Shown here in pieces: positions 3,295-49,858 of a DNA stretch of 64,000 bases. Under the pieces are notes generated by a model. That model saw only the letters and a program-made list of their open reading frames with translations. It did not search any database and was not told the DNA's origin. The position numbers and the translations under genes are program-made. Position 1 is the first letter of the stretch; the number at the start of each line of letters is the position of its first letter. Source of the DNA: Chitinophaga pinensis (GTDB taxonomy: Bacteria > Bacteroidota > Bacteroidia > SXHM01); assembly GCA_945889235.1 (NCBI GenBank), contig CAMDBK010000001.1:5485-69484 (forward strand), given 5' to 3'.

Positions 3295-4227
3295 ATGCCT
3301 TTTGAAGTAAAAATATTTACCGGAGAAAAAAGCTCTTATCTATCTGAAAAGATAGCTGAGGCTTATGGTATTCCTTTAGGAAAATCATCGGTTGCACGCT
3401 TTAAAGACGGTGAGTTTGAGCCTTCTTTTGGTGAAAGTATCCGCGGAGAAGACGTTTTTATTGTTCAAAGCACTTTTCCTCCGGCTGATAACCTTTTGGA
3501 ATTGCTTTTAATGATTGATGCTGCCAAGCGCGCATCAGCCAAACAGGTAGTGGCAGTTATTCCGTATTTCGGGTTTGCAAGACAAGATAGAAAAGATAAA
3601 CCCCGTGTTTCCATCGGAGCAAAATTAGTGGCAAATCTTATCAGCGCTGCCGGTGCTACCCGCATTATTACAATGGATTTACATGCCGACCAGATACAAG
3701 GCTTTTTTGATGTTCCGGTTGACCATTTATACTCTTCTTACCTGTTTCTAGATTACCTGAAAAATCTTGGTCTGCCTAATTTAGTTATGGCAACTCCGGA
3801 TGTAGGTGGAACTCGCAGGGCAAACGCTTATGCTAAAAACCTGAATGTTGATTTGGCTATTTGCTACAAACAACGCAAGGTGGCAAACGAAGTACACAGC
3901 ATGACCGTTATCGGTGACATTGTGGGCAAAGATATAGTGCTGGTTGATGACATCATTGACACGGGCGGAACCTTGGTAAAAGCTGCTGATATGATGATGG
4001 AAAAAGGAGCAAATAGCGTTCGTGCCTGCATTACCCATCCACTACTTTCAGGCGATGCTTATGAAAATTTAGAAAAATCAAATCTTACCGAATTAGTGGT
4101 AACCAATACTATTCCGCTGAAGAGGGAAAGCAATAAAATAAGAGTGCTTTCAGTGGCTCCGCTGTTTGCGGATGTAATAAGGAAGGTTCACAATTACGAA
4201 TCAATAAGCACACACTTTATTTTCTAA
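3295..4227 (+). CDS. prs: Ribose-phosphate pyrophosphokinase
   Basis: GFARQDRKDKPRVSIGAKLVANL and DLHADQIQGFFDVPVDHL motifs. 310 aa. Conserved prs-rplY-pth gene order. Confidence 0.9.
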   Translation: MPFEVKIFTGEKSSYLSEKIAEAYGIPLGKSSVARFKDGEFEPSFGESIRGEDVFIVQSTFPPADNLLELLLMIDAAKRASAKQVVAVIPYFGFARQDRKDKPRVSIGAKLVANLISAAGATRIITMDLHADQIQGFFDVPVDHLYSSYLFLDYLKNLGLPNLVMATPDVGGTRRANAYAKNLNVDLAICYKQRKVANEVHSMTVIGDIVGKDIVLVDDIIDTGGTLVKAADMMMEKGANSVRACITHPLLSGDAYENLEKSNLTELVVTNTIPLKRESNKIRVLSVAPLFADVIRKVHNYESISTHFIF

Positions 4228-4286: not shown

Positions 4287-4946
4287 ATGAAAACAGTATC
4301 TATTAGCGGTTCACCAAGAGTGAACGTAGGGAAGAAAGATGCAAAAGCTTCGCGCAGAAGTGGTCTTATCCCCTGTGTAATTTATGGCGGAAAAGAGCAA
4401 ATCCACTTTGTGGCTGATGAAAAAGAGTTCAAAAAACTCGTTTACACACCTGAAGTTTTTAAAGCCGATATTAAAGTAGGTGACAACCAGTATTCTGCTA
4501 TCATGCAGGAAATTCAGTTCCACCCCATCAATGATAAAATTATTCATATTGATTTCCGTGAACTTGATCCAGTAAAATACATTACAGTTGATGTTCCAGT
4601 AAAAATTACAGGAAGCGCATCAGGTGTTAAGGACGGAGGTTCACTGGTTCAGAATTACAGAACTTTAAAAATCAGTGCTCTGCCCAAGGATTTTCTTGAA
4701 AATGTGACTATTGATGTTACCGCTCTGAAGATAAACGAAGGAGTTAAAGTGAACAGCCTGGAGTTTCCCGGAGTTAAGTTCTTAGACAACCCTGCAAGTG
4801 AAGTAGTAGGCGTGAAACACAAACGCGGAGCGCTTGAAGAAGCAACCCCTGCTGCAGCGGCAGCGGCAGCAACACCGGCAGCAGCGGCTCCAGCAGCAGC
4901 AGCTCCAGCCAAGGCAGCAGCACCGGCTAAAGACGCTAAGAAATAG
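4287..4946 (+). CDS. rplY: 50S ribosomal protein L25 / general stress protein Ctc
   Basis: N-terminal MKTVSISGSPRVNVGKKDAKASRRSGLIPCVIYGG is the L25 signature. Ala/Pro-rich C-terminal tail. Lies between prs and pth. Confidence 0.85.
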   Translation: MKTVSISGSPRVNVGKKDAKASRRSGLIPCVIYGGKEQIHFVADEKEFKKLVYTPEVFKADIKVGDNQYSAIMQEIQFHPINDKIIHIDFRELDPVKYITVDVPVKITGSASGVKDGGSLVQNYRTLKISALPKDFLENVTIDVTALKINEGVKVNSLEFPGVKFLDNPASEVVGVKHKRGALEEATPAAAAAAATPAAAAPAAAAPAKAAAPAKDAKK

Positions 4947-4953
4947 TTTGATA

Positions 4954-5018
4954 GTTCAAAGTTTAAAAGTTCAAAGTTTCAGGTTATCCTCAAACTTTGA
5001 ACTTTTAAACTTTTAAAC
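4954..5018. terminator. AT-rich hairpin (~22-bp near-perfect stem, 12-nt loop) between rplY and pth
   Basis: Left arm GTTCAAAGTTTAAAAGTTCAAAGTTT, loop CAGGTTATCCTC, right arm AAACTTTGAACTTTTAAACTTTTAAAC. Starts 8 bp after the rplY stop and ends 14 bp before the pth ATG. Confidence 0.4.
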
Positions 5019-5031
5019 ATTGAACACATCA

Positions 5032-5595
5032 ATGAAATACTTAATAGCAGGTCTTGGTAATATCGGAAGCGAGTATGCCGAGACCCGCCATAACATAGGT
5101 TTTAAAGTAGTGGATGCCCTTGCAAAGGCGTCCACTACTGTTTTTAAGCCCGACCGTTTGGCCGATGTGTGTGAAGTAAAACACAAAGGCCGCACGTTTA
5201 TTCTTATAAAGCCCACCACGTATATGAATCTGAGTGGTAAAGCCATTAAATATTGGCTTACAGCTGAAAAAATTTCTATCCGGAACCTATTAGTGGTCAC
5301 CGATGACCTTGCGCTCCCTTGTGGCGAACTTCGGCTGAGAGCCAAAGGCAGCGATGGCGGACACAACGGCTTAAAAAGCATACAATTTGAACTGAATACA
5401 AATGAATATCCACGCCTGCGCTTTGGTGTGGGAAATGATTTTGCCAAAGGCAGACAAGTAGATTATGTCTTGGGCGAATGGACGACTGAAGAAAAGCCCA
5501 TCATCAATGAAAGCATTCTTAAATCAGTGGAACTGATCAAAGATTTTGGTTCTATGGATATTGCTTTTGTGATGAATAAGTTCAATAAGAAGTAA
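5032..5595 (+). CDS. pth: Peptidyl-tRNA hydrolase
   Basis: MKYLIAGLGNIGSEYAETRHNIGF is the Pth signature. ATG at 5032 preferred over the TTG at 5020. Confidence 0.85.
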   Translation: MKYLIAGLGNIGSEYAETRHNIGFKVVDALAKASTTVFKPDRLADVCEVKHKGRTFILIKPTTYMNLSGKAIKYWLTAEKISIRNLLVVTDDLALPCGELRLRAKGSDGGHNGLKSIQFELNTNEYPRLRFGVGNDFAKGRQVDYVLGEWTTEEKPIINESILKSVELIKDFGSMDIAFVMNKFNKK

Positions 5596-5608
5596 AAAAA
5601 CTACATAC

Positions 5609-6475
5609 TTACTGGTATGCAGCACACTTTGCTTTCTTGTTTTTTATACCATATGAAAGTGTTGCGACTGTAAATGAATACCAGTCATTGTTTGTAGAGT
5701 TTCCTCTTTGTCTATCTACATTGCTTTCAGTTGTTCCGATTGAGCGATCAGATAATACGGCAGCTACATCAGTATATTCTGCACGCAAAACAATTGGTTC
5801 TGCATAGGTTTTACTTACATCATCCAGATAATCAGTAAAGGTAGGGCGCATCCCCCACTCTACTCCAAAAACAATTCCACTGGCAACATTGAATTTGAAT
5901 CCGATACCAAACGGAATAGAAAAACTTGTAAGTGAATATTTTTTTCTGTCGGGGTAAGCGGTTGTTCCTTGTCCCTCGGTACCAAGTGGCATCAGTGCAT
6001 AGTAACCAACATTTGCTACTGTATAATTTGTTCCGTTAATGGTGTAGGTTCCGGGATCTACAAAAGCTTTAGGGTTAAATTTAAAAACTCCGAAACCACC
6101 AAAAATATAAGGCGTGAACGGTGTTTTAGAATCACCTGCTATAAAAGGAAGAAAATTAATTTCAAGTTGAGCAGAGAATTCAGCAACCACTGATTTAAAA
6201 CTGAGGTTGCGTTGAATTTGTTCTGCGTTTGCTGATAATGCATCATTGCCCTCAATGCTTCCATACAGGAAACATAATTTACCTGAGAAATGTTCGTTAA
6301 AGTTGTGTCTGTAAAACGCACCGAATGCACCTTTGGGCAGGAAGAATATTTTTTTGCGATTTAATTCTCCGTTGTAAAACGAAACGCCTCCCATAACACC
6401 GAGTTCTGATTTTTGAGCTATGCTCGGCAAACCATGGATTAATGCAAAGAATGACAGTAATAAATACTTTTTCAT
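5609..6475 (-). CDS. Outer-membrane beta-barrel protein (DUF6089-like), paralog 1
   Basis: Signal peptide MKKYLLLSFFALIHGLPSIAQ. Alternating beta-strand pattern. Shares FTDY(L/I)DD(V/A)S and Y..L.P(L)(G/N)TEGQG motifs with the adjacent gene. Confidence 0.5.
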   Translation of the reverse strand: MKKYLLLSFFALIHGLPSIAQKSELGVMGGVSFYNGELNRKKIFFLPKGAFGAFYRHNFNEHFSGKLCFLYGSIEGNDALSANAEQIQRNLSFKSVVAEFSAQLEINFLPFIAGDSKTPFTPYIFGGFGVFKFNPKAFVDPGTYTINGTNYTVANVGYYALMPLGTEGQGTTAYPDRKKYSLTSFSIPFGIGFKFNVASGIVFGVEWGMRPTFTDYLDDVSKTYAEPIVLRAEYTDVAAVLSDRSIGTTESNVDRQRGNSTNNDWYSFTVATLSYGIKNKKAKCAAYQ

Positions 6476-6510
6476 TGGTTGGGGAGTGCCACAAAAACTG
6501 AGCCGCAGCA

Positions 6511-7440
6511 TTAGAATTTAGGTAAACCTTTCCTGGTGGTTTTCAACTTGTAGTTGTAGGTGATGAGGAAAAACATGTAGTGGTCAAGGTCACGCGGATC
6601 GCCACGTTGCTGACCAGCACAAGTCTGGCAGCCGCTAAACGGACCGGGAGCACCTCCCAGTCCACCATCTCCTAAAATTGCAGGGTCAGACAATTGGGCT
6701 GAGGCATCCCCAAAGTTAGAAGCCAGTTCGGTCTTATCGTAATACACAGTGCTTGCATCATCAATATAATCAGTAAAGGTTTTTCTGATTCCGTATTCAA
6801 TTCCGATGCTTGAAGTTTTGTTTAAACTGTATTTCAATCCAATTCCAACGGGTATTGCAAATTGAAAACGTGAGTAATCTTTACGGGTAGGAATTAGTCC
6901 TTGCCCTTCTGTATTTAAAGGTGCAAGTGCTGTCCATTTGCCGTTGTACATTGCTTTAGGATTAAAATAATAACCTGCCACACCAAAAAATCCATAAACA
7001 TAAATATCACTTCCTTTTTTACCACGACCACGCACACGCCTTACCTTGTATCGGCTTCCGATGGTTTCTTTCATCCATGAAAACTCATATTGCGCTGCAA
7101 GTTCCACAACGGGAGATTTGAACATTAGGTTTCTATTGTTTCTGTATGGTTCTTGAGTCCACTTGTCATCGCCATGTAATCTTCCGTATGAAAAACCTAC
7201 TTTAAGAGCTGTGGATTGTGAAAGTTTATAGCGCATTCCTAAGTTAAGCACATAACGGGTGGCCGCCATCTCCAAATCCTTGTAGTAATTGGTACCTATC
7301 TGGTTTGCCCCTCCCAGTTCTCCGAGAAAGTTAGTAGTTCCTACAGCAGCCACAATTTCGTAGCGCATACGTTTCCAGCGCTGAGCTTCTGTAGCTAATG
7401 GTAAAAGGATGATAAGCAGAAGAATATATCTTTTTATCAT
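6511..7440 (-). CDS. Outer-membrane beta-barrel protein (DUF6089-like), paralog 2
   Basis: Signal peptide MIKRYILLLIILLPLATEAQ. Tandem paralog of 5609-6475 with shared motifs. Confidence 0.5.
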   Translation of the reverse strand: MIKRYILLLIILLPLATEAQRWKRMRYEIVAAVGTTNFLGELGGANQIGTNYYKDLEMAATRYVLNLGMRYKLSQSTALKVGFSYGRLHGDDKWTQEPYRNNRNLMFKSPVVELAAQYEFSWMKETIGSRYKVRRVRGRGKKGSDIYVYGFFGVAGYYFNPKAMYNGKWTALAPLNTEGQGLIPTRKDYSRFQFAIPVGIGLKYSLNKTSSIGIEYGIRKTFTDYIDDASTVYYDKTELASNFGDASAQLSDPAILGDGGLGGAPGPFSGCQTCAGQQRGDPRDLDHYMFFLITYNYKLKTTRKGLPKF

Positions 7441-13215: not shown

Positions 13216-13340
13216 GCAAACTTTTTCTGTATTCAGGTGTTATCATTTCATTAATTTTGACTTTGCTCTCACAGAGTTCTATCTTTGAACCCGTAAACTT
13301 TTAAACCTTTAAACTTTCTAAACCTTATAAACTAAAAAAC

Positions 13341-18819: not shown

Positions 18820-18925
18820 CGGATGACGGGGATGGCACACGGATGACACGGATTTAACTGATTGGCGCGGATTTTAAAATCTGTATTTATCCGCCCAATC
18901 CGTGTCATCCGTGTGCCATTCCTTC
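18820..18925. promoter_or_regulatory. ~100-bp near-perfect palindrome with 10-bp-phased GGATG repeats in the divergent region between the zinc-ribbon gene and ssb
   Basis: ATGGCACACGGATGACACGGATT (18832-18854) matches its reverse complement at 18897-18919 (23/23). Inner ATTGGCGCGGAT/ATCCGCCCAAT and a central GATTTTAAAATC palindrome. Confidence 0.5.
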
Positions 18926-21490: not shown

Positions 21491-21551
21491 TTTTAAGCCA
21501 AGTAGGCAAACAGGAATTAGCCACAAAGTAAACACCTATTTGCCTATTTGC

Positions 21552-22355
21552 CTAATTGGCTATTTGGCTGTCTTCCTGCTTGCCTAACTCCTGTTTGCCT
21601 ACTTGCCTAAAAAAGACATCCTCCCTCAATATCACTTCTTCCTGCAATTTATAAACTCTTTCTTTCAGTGCGGGAATATCTTTTTCAGTCATGCCTGTGG
21701 TGTCAATCGGTTTAAGAAAACGCACGCTAACAGTTCCGGGTGTAACCAGCCAAGTATCCATAGGCATTAATGTGCGGCAGTGTAGTACAATCATAGGAAG
21801 CAAAGGTGTTTGTGTTTCTATTGCAATGCGGAAAGCTCCGTCATGAAATTCTTTCAGCGGCTTGCCTGTTCGGTTGCGTGTACCTTCAGGCATAATAAGA
21901 ATGGAAGTGCCCTCGCGCAGGGTTTTTATCATAAGGTCTAAACTCTTTTTACGGCTTTCGGGACTACTGCGGTCAACAAACAGACAGGCAACTTTAAACA
22001 GATAACCTATCAAGGGAATTTTTCCGGTCTCCACTTTTGCCAGTGTTTTATAAGCCATTTTTATTGACGAGCCGCAGGCAAATAAATCCAGCGTTGATGA
22101 GTGTGTACCCGAAACAACATAGGCGCGATTGCTGTCAATATTCTCGTACCCGGTAAAATCCTGTTTCATAAAACTAAGCGCAAACCATATATCACTCCAG
22201 AAACGGTAATACCGCATCAGCGGTTTTATATAATTTTTTCCACCGGCAATAATTATGAGCGGAGTAATAAATAAACTGACTGCAACAAACAGAAAAAAAA
22301 TCAGATAACTCCAAACAGAGTAGATGGGTTGAATGATTTTGAAAAGTATTTTCAT
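21552..22355 (-). CDS. 1-acyl-sn-glycerol-3-phosphate (lysophospholipid) acyltransferase
   Basis: H(X4)D motif GTHSSTLD and IMPEGTR motif. N-terminal TM helix. ATG at 22353-22355 preferred over the GTG at 22370. Confidence 0.65.
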   Translation of the reverse strand: MKILFKIIQPIYSVWSYLIFFLFVAVSLFITPLIIIAGGKNYIKPLMRYYRFWSDIWFALSFMKQDFTGYENIDSNRAYVVSGTHSSTLDLFACGSSIKMAYKTLAKVETGKIPLIGYLFKVACLFVDRSSPESRKKSLDLMIKTLREGTSILIMPEGTRNRTGKPLKEFHDGAFRIAIETQTPLLPMIVLHCRTLMPMDTWLVTPGTVSVRFLKPIDTTGMTEKDIPALKERVYKLQEEVILREDVFFRQVGKQELGKQEDSQIAN

Positions 22356-22365
22356 TTTTTTTCTC

Positions 22366-22449
22366 ACCACAGATTGACACAGATTCTCACAGATTGCAAC
22401 AGCCGATTATAAACTATTAATCTGTGTTCAATCTGTGTAAATCTGTGGT
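22366..22449. promoter_or_regulatory. Mirrored array: three 10-bp-phased CACAGATT repeats, a 23-bp spacer, then three AATCTGTG repeats
   Basis: CACAGATT at 22368, 22378 and 22388. AATCTGTG at 22419, 22430 and 22440. Lies between the RDD gene stop and the acyltransferase start. Confidence 0.5.
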
Positions 22450-22455
22450 AAAATT

Positions 22456-23184
22456 TCATCGTGTTAAAACAATGTAATCATTCAGCAATGTTTTCAGAAA
22501 AGCAATTTTATCTTTTGGTATTTCGGTGATGTTTAACACCTCTCTCATTTTCTGCACCAGCATATCCAATGCTTCTTTGTGTGCGGTGTTATTATATTTT
22601 TTTGTGCGTTCAATCACTGCTTTAATCAGCAGCATATCACTCTCGTTCAGGTTGCGCACCTGCGGAAACTGCGGCTCATAATTTTCGCGGGTATTGATGC
22701 GCAGCACATCTGCTATTTCAATATTTAATGAAGAGCGTACTTTAATTACGGTTGTATTTGCCAGCATATCACCCAGCCGTTGTCCGCGCACCGTTGAGTT
22801 CACCAATACAGCAGCAATAGTGCCTGACGAAAACCAGATATCAATCAGCCTGAACGCCCAGCGAATAAGGTAATCACTGATGACAGGTTGCTTGCCATTA
22901 AGCTTGGCTACTTTTATTCCAATTGCTTTTTTTCCGAGCGATTGTCCGTTCATCCATATTTCACTTGCAGGTGAATAAAAAAGATAAATGGGAAGCATCA
23001 CTAAATAAAGAAAATAATTTATGGTTTCAAAGCCGCCAATCCATATCCAGAATAAATAAAGCAGAAGAATTGAAAAATTAAGAATCCAGAAATCAATGAA
23101 GAACGCAAAGAACCTGTCGCGGAACGAAGCAAGTTCATACTCAATGGTTACATTTTGCGTTGTAGTTATTTCTATCGTTCTCAT
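22456..23184 (-). CDS. RDD-family membrane protein
   Basis: TM-rich N-terminal half with conserved R/D residues (FRDRFFAFFIDFWIL...). 242 aa. Confidence 0.5.
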   Translation of the reverse strand: MRTIEITTTQNVTIEYELASFRDRFFAFFIDFWILNFSILLLYLFWIWIGGFETINYFLYLVMLPIYLFYSPASEIWMNGQSLGKKAIGIKVAKLNGKQPVISDYLIRWAFRLIDIWFSSGTIAAVLVNSTVRGQRLGDMLANTTVIKVRSSLNIEIADVLRINTRENYEPQFPQVRNLNESDMLLIKAVIERTKKYNNTAHKEALDMLVQKMREVLNITEIPKDKIAFLKTLLNDYIVLTR

Positions 23185-25165: not shown

Positions 25166-25170
25166 TCTCT

Positions 25171-25248
25171 CGTCACCCTGAACTTGTTTCAGGGTCTTAT
25201 TAATAACATATCAGATTTTAGAGATGCTGAAACAAGTTCAGCATGACG
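25171..25248. repeat. Two-hairpin palindromic element, type A
   Basis: CGTCACCCTGAACTTGTTTCAGGGTC..GATGCTGAAACAAGTTCAGCATGACG. Lies 5 bp upstream of the ATG of the guanylyltransferase gene and 4 bp after the aminotransferase stop. Confidence 0.75.
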
Positions 25249-25252
25249 ATCT

Positions 25253-47662: not shown

Positions 47663-47687
47663 TCTAATAATCGTCTTGGCATCTTTT

Positions 47688-47749
47688 CGTCACCCTGAAC
47701 TTGTTTCAGGGTCTTTAGAATAAGATGCTGAAACAAGTTCAGCATGACG
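47688..47749. repeat. Two-hairpin palindromic element, type A, whose terminal GCATGACG supplies the ATG of the downstream acylase gene
   Basis: CGTCACCCTGAACTTGTTTCAGGGTC..GATGCTGAAACAAGTTCAGCATGACG. The ORF start at 47744 lies inside the element. Confidence 0.75.
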
Positions 47750-49858
47750 AACCGCAGCAAACTTTTCTCTCTGTGCACCTCTGTGCTTGCTCTGTTGTAC
47801 TCTGTGTTCTGTTTTTCACAAAACATTGACCCTAGCAAAATTGAAATCGTTCGCGATACCTTTGGTGTTCCACACATTTTTGCAAAAACAGATGCCGAAG
47901 TTGCTTACGGTTTAGCCTGGGCAACGCTGGAAGATGATACTGCCAATGCGCAGTTTCTGTTGCTTGCCGCTAAATCACAATTAGCACGTTACTTAGGAGT
48001 TGAGGGTGCAAAAATTGATTACGCTGCACAGTTAATGGACGTTGTTAGTTTTGTGGAAGAGCATTATGAAAAAGATGTTCCTGAGGATTACAAACGTGTA
48101 CTGGAAGGATATTGTCAGGGAGCAAATGAGTATGCAAAAGCGCACCCGAAAGAGTTGTATGTAAAAGAAAAATTCTTCAATGTGCGTCCGCAGGACGCGC
48201 TGGCGGGTTATATGCTGGGATTAGCTCTGATGGGTGGTGTTGACGGAACCATCAATGATATTATCAATGGAAATATTCTTACACGAATTCCTGAAAATTT
48301 TGATGAAGGTGTGGGTTCCAACGCCATTGCGTTCAGTCCAAAAATGACAACCGATGGCAATTCGTATTTAGATATTAATTCACATCAGCCGCTGGAAGGT
48401 TTACTCTCATGGTACGAAGCTCATGTGTGCAGTGAAGAGGGCTGGAATATTACGGGTTCACTTTTTCACGGAGGCATTTCCATTTTTCACGGAACGAATG
48501 AAAACCTTGGCTGGGCGCATACTACAGGACATGTTGACGGCCTTGATGTGTACAAACTAACACTGCACCCGCGCAAAAAGAATTATTACAAATTTGATGG
48601 CAAGTGGATGAAACTGGAAACCAAACATGCCAAGCTTCGGGTGAAAATAGGGAAGAAAGAAAAGAAAGGATTTATTCTTGCCATCAGCAAAAAATACTGG
48701 AAGAGCATTTACGGACCAACACTTGTCACCAAACACGGAGTGTTCGCTTTCCGCATGCCTGCCTTGCTTACACTGAAAGCGGGTGAACAATGGTACCGCA
48801 TGAACAAGGCGAAAAACTTTGATGAATTTATGAGCGCGTTGAAAATTCAGGGCATCGCACATCAGAATGTTACGTACGCAGATAAAGATAACATCATGTT
48901 AATCGCCAACGGATTGTTTCCTGTGCGCGATTTGCATTACAACTGGAACATGGTGGTGCCGGGCGATACCTCCGCCACACTTTGGAATTCATATTATCCT
49001 GTGGAAGGACTTGCCAGTTTTATTAATCCTGATTGCGGTTATGTATTTAACGTAAATAATTCTGCTTTTGACGGAACAGGAAAAGATTGTAATCTGGATG
49101 GCACCTGCTACAGCCCTACCATGGGTTATCAGTTGGAAGTAAACAACCGCAGTCTTCGCTTTTATGAACTGATGGAACAATATAAAAGCGTGAACTACGA
49201 AGATTTTAAACGTATAAAATTTGACTACACCTATCCGCAAAAAATAAAATTCCTCCGCGATTTTCCATTGGATGAGTTTATGACGTTGGATGAAGAAAAA
49301 TATCCTGACATAGCTGATGCCATAAAAAAGATAAAAGCATTTGACCGCAGTGCCGATACGCTGGATATGAATTTTTCAATTGTATTGCTTTCGATGTTGA
49401 AGTTGTATGAAAACAGCGGTGGCAAAGAAGACAGCCTGCGCAAAAGCAAAGAGTACAGAATTGAAATGGCAGTAAAAAGTATTCGCCAGGGGAAGGAGCA
49501 TTTGATAAAATACTTTGGCAGCATTGATATTCCGCTTTCAAAAGTTCAGGTGTTGGAGCGAGGTGGAAAAGCATTGCCTATTAATGGTTGTCCTGATTGT
49601 ATTCGTGCAGCGTATTCAAATCCAATGGCTGACGGGCGTATGCGCATTTGGATTGGCGATAGTTTTGTGCAATTAGTAAAATTCACCAAAGCCGGACCTG
49701 AGATTGAAAGCATACATTCCTACGGTGCTTCCAATCGTCCTTACAGCAAGCATTACAATGACCAGATGGAATTGTTTGTGGCGCAGAAACTGAAGAAACG
49801 TTCGCTTAATAAAGAAGAGGTTTACAAAAGCGCGGAACGGATTTATCATCCGCAGTAG
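47744..49858 (+). CDS. Penicillin acylase-family Ntn hydrolase (S45), candidate acyl-homoserine-lactone acylase
   Basis: Signal peptide. GSNAIAFSP nucleophile-Ser region as in the PGA beta-subunit N-terminus. 704 aa. Confidence 0.7.
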   Translation: MTNRSKLFSLCTSVLALLYSVFCFSQNIDPSKIEIVRDTFGVPHIFAKTDAEVAYGLAWATLEDDTANAQFLLLAAKSQLARYLGVEGAKIDYAAQLMDVVSFVEEHYEKDVPEDYKRVLEGYCQGANEYAKAHPKELYVKEKFFNVRPQDALAGYMLGLALMGGVDGTINDIINGNILTRIPENFDEGVGSNAIAFSPKMTTDGNSYLDINSHQPLEGLLSWYEAHVCSEEGWNITGSLFHGGISIFHGTNENLGWAHTTGHVDGLDVYKLTLHPRKKNYYKFDGKWMKLETKHAKLRVKIGKKEKKGFILAISKKYWKSIYGPTLVTKHGVFAFRMPALLTLKAGEQWYRMNKAKNFDEFMSALKIQGIAHQNVTYADKDNIMLIANGLFPVRDLHYNWNMVVPGDTSATLWNSYYPVEGLASFINPDCGYVFNVNNSAFDGTGKDCNLDGTCYSPTMGYQLEVNNRSLRFYELMEQYKSVNYEDFKRIKFDYTYPQKIKFLRDFPLDEFMTLDEEKYPDIADAIKKIKAFDRSADTLDMNFSIVLLSMLKLYENSGGKEDSLRKSKEYRIEMAVKSIRQGKEHLIKYFGSIDIPLSKVQVLERGGKALPINGCPDCIRAAYSNPMADGRMRIWIGDSFVQLVKFTKAGPEIESIHSYGASNRPYSKHYNDQMELFVAQKLKKRSLNKEEVYKSAERIYHPQ

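Follow-up and report, generated by a model that had tools for sequence, protein, structure and literature searches.

The DNA examined here is a 64-kb stretch of a Chitinophaga pinensis contig (hereafter the window, to which all coordinates refer unless a locus is named), and its subject is a mirrored array of octamers between two genes of the minus strand, the strand that corresponds to the mRNA sense. The upstream cistron (22456-23184) encodes an RDD-family membrane protein (PF06271) and the downstream cistron (21552-22355) a PlsC-like acyltransferase (PF01553); between them lies a 100-nt intercistronic segment (22356-22455, minus strand) that is missing in relatives in which the two genes overlap. 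On the plus strand the first arm of the array (22366-22395) reads ACCACAGATT GA CACAGATT CT CACAGATT and holds three direct octamers (CACAGATT at 22368, 22378 and 22388, spacing 10 and 10) with a C before the outermost. A central spacer of 23 nt with 35% G+C (GCAACAGCCGATTATAAACTATT, 22396-22418), which forms the loop of the predicted hairpin, separates it from the second arm (22419-22449), which reads AATCTGTG TTC AATCTGTG TA AATCTGTGGT and holds three inverted octamers (reverse complement AATCTGTG at 22419, 22430 and 22440, spacing 11 and 10) with a G after the outermost. An initial annotation of this DNA had described the same layout, namely three direct copies at 10-bp spacing, a 23-bp AT-rich spacer and three inverted copies at 10-11-bp spacing, together with the common orientation of the plsC-like gene and the upstream RDD gene, and our coordinates bear out each of these points.

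Exact copies of the octamer occur eight times in the window against 2.4 ± 1.6 expected, a count reached in none of 100 shuffles, and six of the eight are packed into 82 bp. With one mismatch allowed, occurrences elsewhere in the window are at chance level (61 observed, 63 expected). The array sequence is identical in three independent assemblies of the same population and is therefore not an assembly artefact. Folding of the minus-strand segment gave -45.2 kcal/mol compared to -19.0 ± 2.8 kcal/mol for shuffled sequences (z = -9.2), in agreement with the long hairpin proposed earlier; the predicted RNA hairpin is about 90 nt long, with a stem of about 30 bp interrupted by periodic bulges, and it spans 22362-22453, beginning 2 nt past the RDD stop codon and ending 6 nt before the plsC ATG. 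The start codon of the plsC-like gene is the ATG at 22355-22353 (minus strand), according to the public gene call and the conserved N-termini of its relatives (MKILFKIIQP / MKTLFKIIQP / MRILFKIIQP), which means that the array does not overlap the start of this gene as had been thought. A comparison of the window with Rfam returned nothing reaching the gathering threshold, the sub-threshold matches being generic hairpins resembling miRNA precursors only.

The RDD/plsC junction in relatives

We compared the junction in relatives whose RDD protein is 83-92% identical to that of the window (loci are given by our L numbers). The junction is empty, with RDD and plsC overlapping as ATGA, in the nearest relative (L202, RDD 92% identical), in L203 and in L130/L131. 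A hairpin is present in L129/L132/L133, built from CACAGATT, CGCGGATT and AATTCGTG units, and hairpins of other units occupy the same junction in L128 (CACAGAGG), L134 (CGCAGAGG) and L204 (CGCAAAGG), while L124 carries a decayed copy. In a neighbor-joining tree of the RDD genes, the source genome is placed beside the empty L202. The simplest reading of these sequences is an ancestral ATGA overlap, with hairpins acquired or exchanged on several occasions. The picture that the relatives give is also close to the alternative that the initial annotation had held out against its own proposal, namely that the region is read through as part of an RDD-plsC operon.

A second tandem-unit hairpin lies at the other end of the plsC-like gene, at the plsC/rnhA junction (21496-21609), and consists of GCCAAATAG / CTATTTGGC units, for which Tandem Repeats Finder reported approximately 9.5 copies of an 8-mer. 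The 3' end of plsC enters the 5' arm of this hairpin, and the reading frame consequently has 11-16 extra C-terminal residues compared with its relatives. The GCCAAATAG-unit hairpin is found at this junction in the window and in most relatives, L130 has a CACGGATG-type hairpin there, and L129 has none. In L129/L132 (locus positions 3597-4189), the place of the hairpin is taken by a two-gene cassette encoding a 69-aa protein and a PIN-domain protein, which is likely a toxin-antitoxin pair.

The third hairpin of the window, a 94-nt palindrome of CACGGATGA / CACGGATT units (18829-18922), sits upstream of ssb in a divergent region. It is about 85% identical to the plsC/rnhA hairpin of L130, which sits at a non-orthologous junction, and its orthologous counterpart in L128 is far more diverged from it than the L130 copy is. 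Hairpins that are homologous thus occur at sites that are not, and one and the same site bears different hairpins, which is the behavior of a dispersed element and not that of an operator. The fourth hairpin (4946-5025, AGTTCAAAGTTTAAA units) fills the gap from a stop codon to the start of pth. Two further repeats were noted in the window: a one-armed array of six TAAACTTT units immediately upstream of sodA (13283-13333), and two copies of a REPIN-like doublet (TTCGTCACCCTGAACTTGTTTCAGGGTCTT / AAGATGCTGAAACAAGTTCAGCATGACGAA, at 25170-25249 and 47686-47751; REPINs being paired forms of the repetitive extragenic palindromic (REP) elements), the latter forming a family distinct from the tandem-unit hairpins.

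Tandem-unit arrays across phyla

A search of 596 Gb with the pattern CACAGATT-N(1-4)-CACRGATT-N(1-4)-CACRGATT matched more than 120 loci of GTDB genomes, a lower bound, against about 0.3 expected by chance under a uniform-composition estimate. The matching genomes belong to Bacteroidota, Planctomycetota, Verrucomicrobiota, Lentisphaerota, Acidobacteriota, Chloroflexota, Gemmatimonadota, Cloacimonadota, Ignavibacteriota, a few Proteobacteria and others, and include isolates of Asticcacaulis, Chryseobacterium, Neolewinella and Bacteroides. In viral contigs, 39 loci with a period of 9-10 were found compared to 6 for a reversed-unit control. The arrays share a common anatomy: a C precedes the first unit in 110 of 135 arrays (81%; 88% among one-armed arrays), the polarity of two-armed arrays is always 5'-C(CACAGATT)n ... 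(AATCTGTG)nG-3', and the octamers are better conserved across arrays than the spacers between them. The spacers are a single nucleotide in 151 of 271 cases (A more often than T, T more often than G, and C almost never), so the usual period is 9 bp, and the one-turn phasing noted in the initial annotation turns out to be peculiar to the window copy.

The unit is not confined to one sequence. Sister units (CGCAGATT, CACGGATT, CACGAATT, CACAGATG, CACAGAGG, CACGAAGG and CGCAAAGA) are enriched in the array-bearing genomes, accounting for approximately 80 of the 273 arrays that were not selected, where about 14 would be expected, and arrays of many unrelated units are also present (193 of 423). The arrays stay moderate in G+C even within high-G+C genomes (e.g., L007 and L090). 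In some genomes the element is present several times with its interior conserved, as in Prevotella (L001/L054/L102, about 145 nt), the Planctomycetota metagenome-assembled genome (MAG) OFTM393 (L007/L090, about 135 nt) and a Saprospiraceae MAG (L013/L034). With respect to genomic context, for which the underlying gene calls are crude, 20 of 33 class hairpins between co-directional genes lie no more than 30 nt from the upstream stop codon, and hairpins between convergent genes outnumber those between divergent ones (14 vs 8).

Two loci of this collection deserve mention in their own right. A Gemmatimonadales MAG (L091, locus positions 5210-6860) contains six tandem repeats of about 270 bp, each with CGCAGATT x3 at its 5' side and AATCTGTG x3 at its 3' side; the G.U pairs of its stem are found on one strand only (about -83 vs -70 kcal/mol), which is a hint of a strand-specific RNA. 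One phage-like IMG/VR viral contig (L179/L178) bears six one-armed CACAGATT x3 arrays, three of which start with a perfect DnaA-box 9-mer (TTATCCACA), the gene calls of this high-G+C locus (L179) being too ambiguous for use. An identity with DnaA boxes was nevertheless rejected for the class as a whole, as only 6 of 135 arrays start with TTATCCACA and the internal units (GATTNCACA) fit poorly. We also rejected the idea that two arrays 4.7 kb apart in L070 are the ends of one large element, as they are separate small arrays, as well as readings in terms of CRP sites, Pho boxes, CsrA sites, Chi or uptake sequences, which misfit in unit, period or cross-phylum spread.

Gene-bearing forms and known repeat classes

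A metagenome scan with an arm of the 18829-18922 hairpin retrieved a locus (contigs L211/L212) in which both arms enclose a gene of 129 aa. Its product is a GxxExxY protein (TIGR04256), scoring 140 bits against a cut-off of 35, and the GxxExxY genes of this study score 140-158 bits overall. The corresponding Pfam family, PF13366, has a PD-(D/E)XK fold, a function listed as unknown and a record of "multiple transfers" between divisions (PMC3424549). Every GxxExxY homologue within the array-selected loci directly adjoins arrays, and in L027, L211/L212 and L078 the gene is placed exactly between inverted arrays. In L027, these are ACCACAGATTaCACGAATTtCACTGATT and AATCTGTGcAATCCGTGtAATCTGTGGT, the element ends in ACCACAGATT...AATCTGTGGT, the same terminal decamers as in the window element, and the whole unit is wedged from a stop codon to the next start codon.

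Since these loci had been chosen by their arrays, a second sample was chosen by protein alone, using tblastn against plasmids, and eight GxxExxY genes and eight genes of a four-helix-bundle family were examined. Six of the eight GxxExxY plasmid genes have annotated neighbors on both sides, and all six lie co-directionally between them, the neighbor pairs including fabD/fabG in Sphingomonas, radA and a gene for an FAD-dependent protein in Bacteroides finegoldii, and ade/manC in Bernardetia. Short repeat units, mostly in tandem arrays, occur on one or both sides of at least seven of the eight. In B. finegoldii (CACCACAGAGGaCGCAGAGGaCACGGAGG ... ACTCTGTGaCCTCTGTGtCCTCTGTGGTG) and Bernardetia, the gene is flanked by perfect inverted tandem arrays. 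The Treponema gene has a single inverted unit, that of Gemmatirosa has a CGCGGATG hairpin a short way downstream, and that of Sphingomonas is preceded by a CGCGAAGG array. In the Fusobacteria plasmid, repeats of the same orientation stand on either side of the gene, and the genes of Prevotella nigrescens and Persicobacter have arrays of other short units on both flanks. The B. finegoldii element (L221) ends in CACCACAGAGG...CCTCTGTGGTG, which are also the terminal sequences of the gene-less hairpins of B. hominis (L084), present four times in 8 kb. No further GxxExxY locus was obtained from a related-locus search of viral contigs or by tblastn against phages.

The four-helix-bundle family, annotated as "S23p / 23S rRNA IVS protein" after the intervening sequences (IVSs) of 23S rRNA genes and which we take to be TIGR02436 / PF05635, is multi-copy in array-bearing phyla. 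Clear inverted tandem arrays are present at both ends of six of its eight sampled genes, five of them with the unit pairs GGGAACA / CTGTTCC in Nostoc, AAAAGGG / CTTTTCC in Geminocystis, GGCAGAA / TTCTGCC in Stanieria, GAGGGCAGG / CTCCTGCCC in Gemmatirosa, and AAGGTTTA / TAAACCTT in a Riemerella plasmid (L232), the last being the unit type of the 4946-5025 hairpin and the 13283-13333 array of the window. Flank complementarity was higher for the 16 protein-sampled genes than for 54 window genes (Mann-Whitney P = 4e-5, a value inflated by G+C differences). Long (AAAAGCT)n / (AAAAGCC)n arrays also accompany the four-helix-bundle gene that is inserted between cas6 and cas4 of a CRISPR-Cas locus in a Pseudanabaena plasmid (L226).

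The sixth of these four-helix-bundle genes lies in a genuine 23S rRNA IVS. L230 is a 23S rRNA gene of Azospirillum lipoferum (RF02541, 602 bits) interrupted by an IVS with a four-helix-bundle open reading frame (ORF), and the IVS arms (ATTCAGAGGACGGATGACAGAGGACGGAGGACAGAAAGG and CTATCCGTCCTCTGTCTTCTGTCATCCGTCTTCTGAGT) are made of ACAGAGG/ACGGATG/ACGGAGG units of the same family as CACAGATT. A comparable organization has been described for the IVS of Coxiella burnetii, in which GACAGAT heptamers stand in tandem upstream of the S23p ORF (three copies, or two in some strains) and the element's terminal inverted repeats pair to give a 28-bp stem that is cleaved mid-stem by RNase III; its G+C content is below that of the genome, and its origin is unexplained, a mobile element having been proposed (PMC4990558). 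The origin and mobility of 23S IVSs have been an open question since about 1990 (PMC4990558). The window element shares with the IVSs of Coxiella, Leptospira and Azospirillum a stem of about 28-30 bp formed by terminal inverted repeats and, in its arms, tandem 7-8-nt units of one family (GACAGAT in Coxiella, ACAGAGG/ACGGATG in Azospirillum, three copies of CACAGATT per arm in the window), although tandem (N)ACAGAK-type repeats in the stem ends are a criterion added from the present comparisons and lie outside the classical IVS definition. Both kinds of element are sporadic among relatives, vary in repeat number between strains, carry the four-helix-bundle ORF optionally and are lower in G+C than their host. 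Unlike an IVS, the window copy is ORF-less and lies between two protein-coding genes instead of within a 23S rRNA helix, so we regard it as IVS-like and not as an IVS in the strict sense; moreover, RNase III excision has been demonstrated for IVSs, whereas for the window copy it is proposed by analogy.

Resemblances to other repeat classes are partial. Like miniature inverted-repeat transposable elements (MITEs), the elements are short, have terminal inverted repeats, are multi-copy with conserved interiors in some genomes, and have gene-bearing counterparts with matching ends (L027; L221 compared with L084; L211 compared with the 18829 hairpin of the window), but the enclosed genes are not known transposases, and the tandem-unit ends change fast in number and sequence. 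Short tandemly repeated repetitive (STRR) sequences, a repeat class described from cyanobacteria in which heptamers stand in tandem between genes, have to our knowledge been linked neither to a gene nor to hairpins. STRR-looking heptamers are what brackets the four-helix-bundle genes in inverted orientation in the Nostoc and Geminocystis plasmids; the STRR unit sequences are unlike CACAGATT. In the literature, of which older subscription journals were thinly covered so that an earlier description may exist, we found no account that treats inverted arrays of tandem units as a shared end structure, that reports such arrays between ordinary genes in many phyla, or that names GxxExxY genes as their cargo.

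Interpretation and alternative explanations

The assignment of the array to a class of short insertion elements with a palindromic build is well supported, and 23S rRNA IVSs seem to be this class's best-known representatives. The best explanation of the compared sequences is that the ends of the class would be inverted arrays of short tandem units, here of the C-R-C-R-G-A-K-K family, and that full-length forms would enclose, where the window copy has its 23-nt spacer, one small gene, either GxxExxY or four-helix-bundle. On balance, we consider it probable, with reservations, that the window array is an ORF-less, MITE-like member of this class that was inserted or arose at the RDD/plsC ATGA overlap and that it acts, if it has any activity, as an intercistronic RNA stem, and not as an operator. 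The descent of the gene-less hairpin from elements that carry genes is inferred, as are any effect on expression and the means of mobility, for which the cargo proteins, GxxExxY and four-helix-bundle alike, are candidates only.

A plausible course of events can be outlined. The hairpin would have been inserted, or have arisen, at the ATGA overlap after the split from the closest sampled relative. When the operon is transcribed, the arms would pair into a bulged stem of about 30 bp that fills the intercistronic space completely. The analogy to IVSs suggests that this stem would most likely be cut by RNase III, which would separate the RDD and plsC cistrons and uncouple plsC. Alternatively or additionally, the stem would at the least hinder ribosomes from reaching the plsC start by occluding the 6-20 nt ahead of its AUG, as long as it is not opened by a ribosome that terminates 2 nt upstream of it.

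Several observations weigh against this proposal. RNase III cleavage of the window stem is argued solely by analogy. No second CACAGATT array exists in the 64-kb window, which covers only part of the source genome, and neither a GxxExxY nor a four-helix-bundle gene is found in the window. The 16 protein-sampled loci are a small sample whose flanks were judged partly by eye. About half of the CACAGATT arrays have a partner arm, and the other half, being one-armed, is unexplained by a hairpin or IVS model. ATGA (or ATGAAA) is the sole direct repeat bracketing the insertion, and it does not demonstrate a target-site duplication, since selection to keep both a stop and a start codon would produce it in any case. 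A comparison of sense and antisense minimum free energies for the 33 hairpins that lie between co-directional genes did not show G.U pairs outnumbering A.C pairs on the sense strand (13 vs 13), so RNA-level selection is not demonstrated. Finally, when the 1,585 ORFs of 120 array loci were clustered all against all, no recurrent transposase or nuclease emerged near the arrays, the only recurrent families being ABC transporters, response regulators, epimerases and glycosyltransferases.

The absence of a transposase and of a G.U bias is what would be expected if the arrays were in-situ mutational by-products, slippage making the units and hairpin-templated correction keeping the arms alike, with neither mobility nor function. 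The fast change of copy number and unit type at one junction, the variation in repeat number among Coxiella strains and the arrays of many unrelated units also accord with this explanation. It does not account for the recurrence of one unit family with its preceding C across phyla, even in high-G+C genomes, or for near-identical hairpins at non-orthologous sites, multi-copy elements with conserved interiors and arrays bracketing specific gene families, and we therefore judge it unlikely.

An intrinsic terminator or attenuator, that is, a hairpin that ends or lowers transcription between RDD and plsC, is suggested by the very stable stem-loop straight after a stop codon, by the preference of the class for upstream stop codons and for convergent over divergent genes, and by the Asticcacaulis copy (L060), which is followed by TTTTTT. 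In the window, the sense-strand stem is followed by GAGAAAAAAAAUG, which is no U-tract, and a terminator scan made no call. Relatives are viable with overlapping genes, so no terminator is needed at this junction, and some copies, such as the 18829 hairpin, lie in divergent regions; termination is thus a quite unlikely role for the element.

A cooperative operator was one of the two readings offered in the initial annotation; a dimeric or OmpR/PhoB-like regulator would bind phased octamers on one face of the DNA and control plsC. The exact octamers at 10-11-bp spacing in the window copy fit this, as do the better conservation of units than of spacers, which protein recognition of single units would give, and one promoter-like match inside the element. 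The site, however, is missing in the nearest relative and in two other lineages and is swapped for other units elsewhere at the same junction; the helical phasing is not conserved, given the usual 9-bp period; promoter-like matches number 3, fewer than the 5.5 that shuffled sequence would give; and the same arrays stand beside unrelated genes in unrelated phyla and around GxxExxY genes. The further arrays by which a regulon was to be defined do not materialize in the 64 kb, where no second site occurs. An operator is accordingly very improbable.

Equally improbable is a REP/REPIN-type element moved by a REP-associated tyrosine transposase (RAYT): intergenic palindromes just past stop codons, in pairs and singlets as with REPINs and REP singlets, do call such elements to mind, and the window also has the separate REPIN-like doublet, but the array ends in CCAC...GTGG (ACCAC...GTGGT) without a GTAG or CGTC tag at one end, the criterion for REPs (PMC3733652), its arms are tandem direct repeats instead of small palindromes, and no recurrent Y1-transposase-like family and no RAYT association were seen near the 120 array loci. 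REPs can affect mRNA stability and the translation of the upstream gene.

The MITE-like insertion proposal can be extended, with considerable doubt, to a single cross-phylum superfamily of mobile cassettes. It is possible, though we hold it less than probable, that the hairpins, the one-armed arrays, the cyanobacterial heptamer arrays and the 23S IVSs all belong to it, with short-unit arrays (most often C-R-C-R-G-A-K-K) as ends, with the optional cargo recognizing or processing the units, and with the RNase III stem excising the element from the transcript, so that insertion into operons and rRNA would be tolerated.

For the genome studied here, the array is unfit for annotation as an operator or for the definition of a regulon; a sporadic insertion appears instead to have split an overlapping RDD/plsC pair that was probably translationally coupled. 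GxxExxY (TIGR04256 / PF13366) and four-helix-bundle S23p are very abundant small families for which we know of no function, and the sequence comparisons suggest that both may be cargo of cassettes bounded by inverted tandem-unit arrays, that gene-less copies of these cassettes may be scattered between genes in many phyla, and that rRNA IVSs may be objects of this kind as well. Taken singly, IVSs, MITEs, REPs and cyanobacterial tandem heptamers have all been described before. If the proposal is true, it would provide a simple sequence signature for finding such elements, and these would constitute natural self-processing RNA stems with potential as operon insulators.

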